From assembly GCF_003334255.1 (NCBI RefSeq), contig NZ_QOWU01000279.1: a stretch of DNA of 230 bases; one strand, written 5' to 3'. The notes beneath the pieces were generated by a model, which saw nothing but the letters and a program-made list of their open reading frames with translations, was not told the origin of the DNA and searched no databases. A program made the position numbers and the translations under genes. Below are positions 1-230 of the stretch, piece by piece. Positions within the stretch are counted from its first letter, which is position 1; each line of letters opens with the position of its first letter. The DNA comes from Escherichia coli. Its GTDB lineage: Bacteria; Pseudomonadota; Gammaproteobacteria; Enterobacterales; Enterobacteriaceae.

Positions 1-230
1 CCTGGTGCAGTGGGGCCCGCAGGCCCACGGGGACCGGCTGGTGCAGCTGGTCCCAAAGGTGATGCAGGCCCGGCAGGCCCCGCAGGAAAGGATGGTACCG
101 CCGGAGCGGAAGGTAAGGCAGGTCCGGCAGGGCCACGAGGTGAAAGGGGACCAGCGGGGGCACAGGGTGTTCCGGGGCCGGTTGGTCCGGCAGGTCCTGC
201 GGGTAAAACGGGGCCACGAGGTTTGCAGGG
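1..230 (+). CDS. Internal fragment of a collagen-like triple-helix repeat protein (Gly-X-Y)n; 5' and 3' ends lie outside the window
   Basis: Frame 1 (codons from nt 1) has no stop codon and Gly (GGN) at codons 2,5,8,...,74 without a single break, plus a partial GG at 229-230. Of 25 triplets, 13 have Pro in X (GPA x8, GPR x3, GPK, GPV). All four + strand stop codons (60-62, 114-116, 141-143, 204-206) fall in frame 3. Frame 2 is also open but has no Gly periodicity. Codon positions 1 and 2 are almost entirely G/C while position 3 is mixed, which fits this frame. Confidence 0.82.
121..194 (+). repeat. Exact 11-nt direct repeat ggtccggcagg, copies at 121-131 and 184-194 (span covers both copies)
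   Basis: Read directly from the sequence; flanking bases differ on both sides (120 a vs 183 t; 132 g vs 195 t). Both copies are in frame and encode G-P-A-G. Confidence 0.9.
130..222 (+). repeat. Exact 12-nt direct repeat gggccacgaggt, copies at 130-141 and 211-222 (span covers both copies)
   Basis: Read directly from the sequence; flanking bases differ (129 a vs 210 g; 142 g vs 223 t). Both copies are in frame and encode G-P-R-G. A third G-P-R-G at 22-33 uses different codons (ggc cca cgg gga). Confidence 0.9.

Follow-up and report, generated by a model that had tools for sequence, protein, structure and literature searches.

Breakpoints at short direct repeats in the length-variable collagen-like stalk of an Escherichia coli prophage side tail fibre

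The second collagen-like tract (Col2) of a side tail fibre encoded by lambdoid prophages of Escherichia coli differs in length between closely related alleles by multiples of 9 nt, and the breakpoints of the underlying insertions and deletions coincide with short direct repeats at a frequency well above that of register-preserving deletions placed at random. Both observations stem from the comparison of the window—the whole stretch of DNA analysed here, 230 nt in length and 71% G+C—with homologous loci from genomes, phage isolates, and metagenomes. Misaligned pairing at short in-register repeats, combined with selection for products that preserve the register, probably gives rise to the length-variable Col2 stalk and to the joining of different modules within it. 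The phenomenon itself is already known; what the present analysis adds is the breakpoint map at the DNA level and its test against a null expectation.

Results

The gene and its setting

The window consists entirely of Gly-X-Y coding sequence in frame +1 (positions 1-230, plus strand; unless stated otherwise, all positions below refer to the window and to its plus strand), with a glycine at every third codon across 76 codons and zero stops. It encodes residues 323-399 of a 520-residue prophage side tail fibre, as judged by its translation, by two overlapping matches of this translation to the collagen family PF01391 (E=1.1e-8 and 1.7e-7), and by its identity to phage PhiR12_1. An identity of 100% was likewise found to Escherichia phages PhiR12_2, PhiR12_2_star, and PhiR12_4; a literature search for a paper on the PhiR12/PhiR5 phages returned unrelated matches only. 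The window matches 106 places in 39 of 5,426 complete E. coli genomes, all of them chromosomal, at 1-7 places per genome, or up to 7-8 if the junction queries described below are included. STEC strains are among the matches. A plasmid origin was rejected, the window having no match in PLSDB. A gene antisense to the frame or overlapping it was rejected too: a G+C content of 71% accounts for the five open frames out of six, and nothing else favours such a gene.

In PhiR12_1, the coding sequence (L001:5035-6597, 520 codons' worth of protein) directly follows the tail-tip genes K, I, and J, and gpJ is also located directly 5′ of the tail-fibre gene in four E. coli chromosomes. Pfam searches with the 520-residue protein identified an N-terminal phage_tail_N domain (PF08400, PfN; residues 1-134, full model, E=2.4e-42), followed by a first collagen tract, Col1 (PF01391, residues 139-249, E=1.4e-8), and by a Phage_fiber_2 domain (PF03406, Pf2; residues 260-301, E=8.7e-16) that separates the two Gly-X-Y tracts. 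The second tract, Col2, comprises residues 311-427 (117 residues in L001) and contains the window. PF06820, the PfC domain of EPclA/B, gave no Pfam match in the 520-residue protein up to E=10, an absence that constitutes weak evidence. Its product is a Stf-like side tail fibre of the EPclC type, and in lambdoid prophages of E. coli the gene is located just 3′ of J.

Length variation and the 9-nt rule

Related loci were assembled from several sources: 80 IMG/VR loci gathered by protein similarity, 16 loci retrieved via an upstream DNA anchor, 55 metagenome contigs found with a central anchor (positions 43-68), 11 stretches of complete genomes or phage isolates, and five contigs traced from variant proteins. 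A protein search with the Pf2-Col2-C-terminus segment, in which 8000 candidates were scored, was swamped by generic collagen words, and most matches were partial proteins; it yielded the variants P0001, P0007, P0014, P0016, and P0022.

In this sample, 49 alleles of Col2 can be told apart by their DNA and 35 by their protein sequence, with lengths from 66 to 150 residues. At the rise of 2.9 Å per residue used by Ghosh et al. 2012 (PMC3368898), simple arithmetic converts this range into a span of ~19-43 nm and an 18-residue indel into ~5 nm. In a set of 47 distinct full-length proteins that share the architecture described above (287-614 residues), 22 of 24 distinct gap intervals fall in Col1 or Col2 and none in the C-terminal domain. 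Between alleles with near-identical flanks, in-domain indels of 9, 18, 36, 45, 54, 63, 72, and 81 nt were observed, to which comparisons with L157 and L159 added indels of 117 and 180 nt; all indels that separate close alleles inside the domain have lengths divisible by 9 nt. One IMG genome harbors four prophage copies with three Col2 lengths. The first-pass annotation had anticipated that homologous loci would differ in tract length and had set in-frame indels in multiples of 9 nt as a test, and both expectations were borne out, the latter in all in-domain comparisons of close alleles. Out-of-frame indels, considered as a refutation of the rule, were confined to ±1 homopolymer changes in one NCTC assembly (L165), which most probably reflect sequencing errors or decay of that copy.

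It might be argued that faulty assembly or sequencing of a tract so repetitive and GC-rich has created the variants, given that many database proteins are partial, with contigs ending in the collagen region, that the NCTC assembly carries the said ±1 indels in homopolymer runs, and that many alleles derive from short-read metagenome contigs. However, the 54-nt deletion and both 36-nt deletions described below occur in finished sequence, namely E. coli chromosomes and sequenced phage isolates (L002, L003, L004, L161, L164). Moreover, the repeats involved measure 7-12 nt, far below assembler k-mers—the name of the contig L157 is tagged k127—and identical variants recur across independent samples. 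An artefactual origin is accordingly very improbable.

The multiple-of-9 rule is, by itself, no evidence for a mechanism, because selection for the Gly-X-Y register leads to the same expectation; only the statistics of the breakpoints bear on this question. The rule is in fact a prediction of an explanation in which short repeats have no mechanistic role and indels arise anywhere, those in multiples of 9 nt being left over by purifying selection on the Gly-X-Y register and the triple helix.

Repeats within the window

Two exact direct repeats stand out by length: an 11-nt pair, GGTCCGGCAGG, at 121-131 and 184-194 (span 121-194, spacing 63), and a 12-nt pair, GGGCCACGAGGT, at 130-141 and 211-222 (span 130-222, spacing 81). 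The coordinates, sequences, and register proposed for both pairs in the first-pass annotation were found to be correct. Further exact repeats of 9 nt are present at 2-10/38-46 (spacing 36) and at 117-125/189-197 (spacing 72), and the offsets of all four pairs are multiples of 9. Tandem Repeats Finder (TRF) detected a single weak tandem array at 64-86, with a period of 9, 2.6 copies, and a score of 39. Units coding for GPAGPAG recur at 67-89 and 184-206; the units at 67-87 and 184-204 named in the first-pass annotation are imperfect copies of each other, 78% identical over 23 nt.

The repeats are no more numerous or longer than the encoded protein entails. In 2000 synonymous-codon shuffles of the window, with the protein held fixed, the longest exact repeat averaged 11.5 ± 1.9 nt, compared with 12 nt in the window itself (P=0.44). 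Repeats reaching 9 nt or more numbered 3.2 on average, against 4 observed (P=0.37), and those reaching 11 nt or more 1.3, against 2 observed (P=0.34). With eight occurrences of GPAG and three of GPRG among its 76 residues, the peptide is so rich in Gly-Pro-Ala that identical 11-12-mers are a by-product of coding for it. A shuffle of whole GXY units gave a nominal excess of repeats of at least 11 nt (P=0.035), a value not relied on since the stretch tested overran the collagen tract. Selection for or against DNA repetition in the window was rejected, neither being indicated by the codon-shuffle and GXY-unit-shuffle tests, and there is no sign in the exact repeats, which are no commoner than in the codon shuffles, of DNA shaped for instability. 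That the exact repeats do not exceed the codon-shuffle expectation fits the explanation without a role for repeats.

A map of deletions and gains

The direction assigned to each event below, loss or gain, is putative; the breakpoints themselves are observed. The smallest change is a 9-nt loss at 64-80, by which one GPA unit is removed from the tandem array (64-86, 2.6 copies) across 8 nt of microhomology, GCAGGCCC, in L007, L008, and L009; this loss occurs both in a viral contig and in the genome of an IMG isolate. A 36-nt (12-residue) deletion is bounded by the 9-nt repeat CTGGTGCAG at 2-10/38-46 (span 2-46) in the complete genome JNEC-KY179 (L003) and in L118; the matches H37-H43 start at query position 38, which is the right copy of this repeat. 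The commonest natural indel is a 54-nt (18-residue) deletion between the copies of the 8-nt repeat CCGGCAGG at 70-77/124-131 (span 70-131), carried by L002, L004, L010, L012, L015, L016, and L164, complete genomes among them. This repeat is nested in a 25-nt imperfect repeat at 53-77/107-131 that is 80% identical, and L016 shows an alternative crossover for the same deletion, in GCAGG. A second 36-nt (12-residue) deletion, bounded by CGGGGCC (7 nt) at 173-179/209-215 (span 173-215), was found in the phage isolate PhiR12_5 (L161) as well as in L008, L009, L014, and L120.

Three further events were mapped to shorter exact homology at the crossover (2-5 nt). A 117-nt (39-residue) deletion, known from protein P0014 and its contig L157, the latter seen in 3 samples, connects the imperfect repeat 67-89/184-206 (span 67-206) through a crossover in CC (2 nt) at 79-80/196-197; a 45-nt deletion starting at 2-7 has CTGGT (5 nt) at its breakpoint (L158, L165); and a 180-nt deletion starting at 74-78 has CAGG (4 nt; L159). 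Beyond the window, the longest direct repeat in the gene, 19 nt shared between Col1 and Col2, bounds a 690-nt deletion that converts the two-collagen protein into a single-collagen protein of 287 residues (L160), and a 45-nt deletion within Col1 is bounded by a 12-nt Col1 repeat (L165). Gains are represented by a duplication of 94 residues, formed between GPKGDKGEPGA and GPKGDRGEPGA (L117), and by an insertion of 3 residues (L142).

The repeat copies singled out by the first-pass annotation thus served as breakpoints in part. L007-L009 lack one GPA unit within 67-87, the 117-nt deletion of L157 runs between the units at 67-87 and 184-204, and the right end of the 54-nt deletion lies in 121-131, but the two exact pairs were not seen to act as partners. 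The 63-nt deletion expected from the 121/184 pair and the 81-nt deletion expected from the 130/211 pair were seen in no allele: both are absent from ~100 fetched loci and 24 retrieved database proteins. When a synthetic 63-nt junction was used as query against the 5,426 complete E. coli genomes, the top matches listed were all two-piece and spanned 183 nt, as in the undeleted form; with the corresponding 81-nt junction, the matches listed (12 of 16 full-coverage records) were again all two-piece, spanning 201 nt, and hence undeleted. Since the two longest exact pairs are unused, repeat length alone is no predictor of use. Either selection disfavours the 63- and 81-nt products, or too few alleles were sampled to include them.

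Breakpoints compared with a null expectation

As a null, deletions of the same length that preserve the register were placed anywhere in Col2. Microhomology of at least 7 nt is present at ~5% of such positions, the median being 2 nt. By our own count, 8 of the 11 observed classes of indel events have an exact repeat of at least 7 nt at the breakpoint, for which a binomial estimate gives ~6e-9. The 9-nt loss, the 36-nt deletion at 2-46, and the 54-nt deletion each use the longest or tied-longest repeat available at their spacing, ranking 1-2 of 208-244 classes in a stretch that included ~90 nt past the collagen tract; the null was rerun with the correct Col2 bounds and led to the same conclusion. 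The proposal that breakpoints would coincide with short direct repeats is thereby upheld, the coincidence being far above that of random register-preserving deletions.

These figures weigh on the explanation in which repeats are bystanders. It can accommodate the 117-nt, the 180-nt, and one of the 45-nt events, with their 2-5 nt of exact crossover homology, as well as the disuse of the 121/184 and 130/211 pairs. In contrast, the excess of microhomology over random in-register deletions and the choice of the longest or tied-longest repeat among the in-register ones of the same spacing speak against it. We therefore regard it as quite unlikely that the repeats have no part in the formation of the length variants.

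Junctions between different tracts and modules

Apart from gains and losses, the tract contains points at which one type of sequence changes into another. In two complete STEC genomes (L162, L163), alleles are identical to the window up to position 122 and then continue into another collagen tail and another C-terminal domain (junction 122/123). A second junction, at 217/218, separates RGLQGETG-type from QGPAGGRG/QGPAGERG-type distal collagen (L005, L003, and L011 versus L001); the QGPAGERG type is linked to a different C-terminal domain (VIKGIRLG...), and megablast matches to the window stop at query position 221. Further switch points lie at about position 4 (L004, L016, L017) and within 70-77 (L025 type). 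Altogether, the junctions in the tract connect four different C-terminal domains with three N-terminal architectures: the lambdoid PfN type, a type of 654-688 residues that differs in its N-terminus and contains a long coiled-coil-like region (L004, L005), and the P0023 type. Given up to 7-8 matching places per genome and the IMG genome with its four copies, co-resident copies provide ample substrate for exchange.

Such mosaicism raises the alternative that the length differences reflect homologous shuffling of old, diverged collagen segments among co-resident prophage tail-fibre genes, rather than intragenic slippage, and that the indels are inherited mosaic blocks. The junctions within the tract, the variety of termini that they connect, the multiplicity of matching places, and the occurrence of the same indel states on different flanking backgrounds all agree with shuffling. 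Yet shuffling leaves unexplained how each length state first originated and why the edges of the blocks coincide with direct repeats inside a single allele. Changes in the number of 9-nt units (GPA, (GPQ)1-4) and the duplication and deletion involving Col1 and Col2 are classic products of misalignment, and L012 differs from L001 solely by the 54-nt indel across the 262 nt compared. As the sole source of the length variants, shuffling is consequently unlikely. The slippage and shuffling views are complementary rather than exclusive, and the indel events may be old, having spread via ordinary homologous exchange between alleles. Overall, the tract behaves like a mosaic gene with dispersed microhomologies, not like a contingency locus.

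Discussion

A likely sequence of events

In E. coli, deletions that do not depend on RecA are favoured by short direct repeats, and the single-strand-annealing recombinases of phages tolerate short, diverged homology. Against this background, misaligned pairing at repeats would operate as follows. Coding for Gly-X-Y triplets rich in Gly-Pro-Ala/Arg unavoidably creates many in-register direct repeats, of 7-12 nt if exact and ~80% identical if longer. Misaligned pairing at these repeats would then lead to the loss or gain of blocks; candidate pathways are slippage during replication, recombination through short homology, and unequal crossover, either between sister copies or between the several related prophages that a single genome contains. 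Products that keep the register would be the only ones to survive as working trimeric fibres, leaving multiples of 9 nt within the collagen domain. The same repeats, together with the similarity between paralogues, may allow N-terminal attachment modules and C-terminal receptor-binding tips to be joined inside the tract. The predicted result is a population of fibres with varied stalk lengths, at ~0.29 nm per residue, which may affect adsorption or host range.

Comparison with known systems

The protein is most readily compared with the collagen-like tail fibres EPclC and EPclB of E. coli prophages, whose collagen domains vary in length by multiples of three residues and for which inter-prophage recombination has been proposed (Ghosh et al. 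2012, PMC3368898). The EPclC architecture (PfN, Col, Pf2, Col, C-terminal domain) is that of the 520-residue protein, and the example ECED1_2081 equals it in total length (520 residues) and in having collagen domains of 118 and 117 residues, the comparison being one of lengths. For recombinant EPclA, electron microscopy revealed a collagen-domain length consistent with a triple helix, and these collagen-like genes are described there from enterohaemorrhagic E. coli, in prophages among which are Shiga-toxin phages (Ghosh et al., PMC3368898). While that study was concerned with proteins, the present analysis maps DNA breakpoints and compares their microhomology with a null.

Stf of phage lambda and StfR of a K-12 prophage resemble the protein in being encoded 3′ of J and in possessing PfN and Pf2 domains. 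Lambda Stf is not known to carry the long collagen-like tracts of the allele described here. Its C-terminal receptor-binding region differs as well. Side tail fibres such as lambda Stf influence the speed of temperate-phage adsorption on E. coli and the choice of receptor (PMC3368898).

Outside the tail fibres, a collagen-like stalk with a triplet number that varies between strains is also a feature of BclA, of Scl1/Scl2 from Streptococcus pyogenes, and of Lcl. The tracts of BclA, Scl, and Lcl are long, near-perfect tandem DNA arrays. In contrast, the gene here contains 2.6 copies of a single 9-nt unit (TRF), and its events use dispersed repeats of 7-19 nt, such that the parallel to BclA and Scl drawn in the first-pass annotation holds for the outcome, variation in triplet number, and not for the DNA arrangement. 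In Bacillus anthracis, the strain-specific number of Gly-X-Y triplets in BclA has been linked to filament length (PMC10470788), and Lcl of Legionella is covered in PMC6460258.

Precedents for recombination in collagen-like repeats come from viruses. In Streptococcus thermophilus phages, the collagen-like repeats of the antireceptor have been proposed to be recombination hot spots (Desiere, Lucchini and Brussow 1998; Duplessis and Moineau 2001), and a spontaneous deletion of collagen repeats has been reported in phage Sfi21, in each case as cited in PMC7242381 and PMC5601072. These are siphophages of a Gram-positive host with an unrelated protein framework, which likewise carry collagen-like repeats in a host-recognition protein. 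In ORF8 of the Guarani virophage, an in-frame deletion of 81 nt across collagen-like repeats arose spontaneously, was selected during culture, and was associated with a wider host range (Mougari et al. 2020, PMC7242381). Although ORF8 belongs to a eukaryotic virophage, has five tandem repeats of 27 nt, and does not encode a tail fibre, it constitutes an experimental precedent for in-register deletions that change function.

Implications

Because both the variable length of collagen domains and the role of collagen-like repeats as recombination hot spots in phages have already been published, the current understanding of these proteins is left unchanged. The mapped sites of stalk-length change and module joining are nevertheless concrete sites for the typing of prophage tail fibres, the repeat-rich variable tract explains why short-read assemblies break or are mis-annotated there, and the map suggests points at which fibres of chosen length or specificity might be engineered. 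A more speculative reading, which we put forward tentatively, is that the collagen tracts are not just passive spacers; they would be selected as register-preserving recombination adapters that raise the rate at which receptor-binding tips are exchanged and stalk length is tuned. An in-phase crossover between Gly-X-Y tracts would then always give a foldable trimer, so that unrelated phage types could swap their tips. If this were true, collagen tracts would represent an evolvability device for host range.

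Reading Frames and Database Sampling of the Collagen Tract

No stop codon occurs in five of the six reading frames over window positions 1–230, as is expected for a Gly-Pro-Ala tract of 71% G+C, and examination of all six frames over this interval gave no evidence for a second gene. Most of the close database relatives (proteins P0001–P0025) are annotated as "partial," and many of them begin within the collagen tract, presumably because the underlying contigs end there. Frequent breaks thus seem to affect short-read assemblies of E. coli here, with the consequence that length variants are under-sampled. 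A frameshifted copy is found in an NCTC assembly (GCA_900450425.1, L165:1000-2600), where several ±1 indels, located in G or T homopolymer runs, have caused three short ORFs to be called for the gene; the database protein P0022 is largely a +2-frame translation of the collagen tract. The disrupted frame of L165 and P0022 is likely due to read errors or to decay of the prophage copy.

Genomic Context of the Tail Fiber Gene

The collagen segment of the window is also contained in tail fiber genes with quite different N-terminal halves (L004:965-3028, L005:1127-3088, and protein P0023). One N-terminal type (654–688 aa, starting VSVVVSGTLK) features a long coiled-coil-like region, and another starts MWYREGTITF. 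In PhiR5_2 (L005), homology to PhiR12_1 (L001) starts inside Col1, and the collagen segment is ~99% identical to the window at the nucleotide level.

Downstream, the DNA corresponding to the gene adjoining the tail fiber is interrupted in PhiR12_1 by a 2.6-kb insertion (L001:6708-9285), located ~480 nt downstream of the window's gene. The adjoining gene is uninterrupted in the phage isolate PhiR12_5, where it is noted as "tail fibers," and homologues occupying the same place in E. coli genomes carry the annotation DUF4376. Two genes on the reverse strand of L001:6708-9285 bear the notes "Transposase / Integrase" and "ATP-binding transposition helper protein," a pair that suggests an IS21-type element. 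When PhiR12_1 is compared with PhiR12_5, the junctions overlap by 8 nt, consistent with a target-site duplication. In several prophages, a gene encoding a YadA-like protein with a YadA C-terminal anchor (L002:4010-5176, L004:4433-5160, L162:4019-4122, and L164:3487-4163) lies ~1 kb downstream of the tail fiber and DUF4376 genes; we take its product to resemble the prophage-borne Eib immunoglobulin-binding proteins.

Rearrangements and Coexisting Length Alleles

On a metagenome scaffold (L160:396-1259), a 690-nt deletion between the two collagen domains, located at a 19-nt exact repeat (ACAGGTCCACAGGGACCGA), has removed the remainder of Col1 together with the Pf2 repeat and the greater part of Col2. 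The product is a fiber of 287 aa with a single collagen domain (P0016, 11 member sequences). An apparent 94-aa duplication comprising the Col1 end and the Pf2 linker, which arose between GPKGDKGEPGA and GPKGDRGEPGA, raises the number of collagen domains to three in a 614-aa protein encoded on a short-read metagenome contig (ERZ773150 NODE-4107, L117); it would represent the reciprocal type of event to the L160 deletion.

A single sequenced genome, IMGVR_UViG_643348545, harbors four prophage copies of the tail fiber gene, on contigs 000006 (L006), 000009 (L008), 000013 (L009), and 000008 (L010), whose Col2 domains measure 114, 102, 102, and 99 aa, respectively. Given these three different Col2 lengths in one genome, length alleles therefore coexist within one cell.
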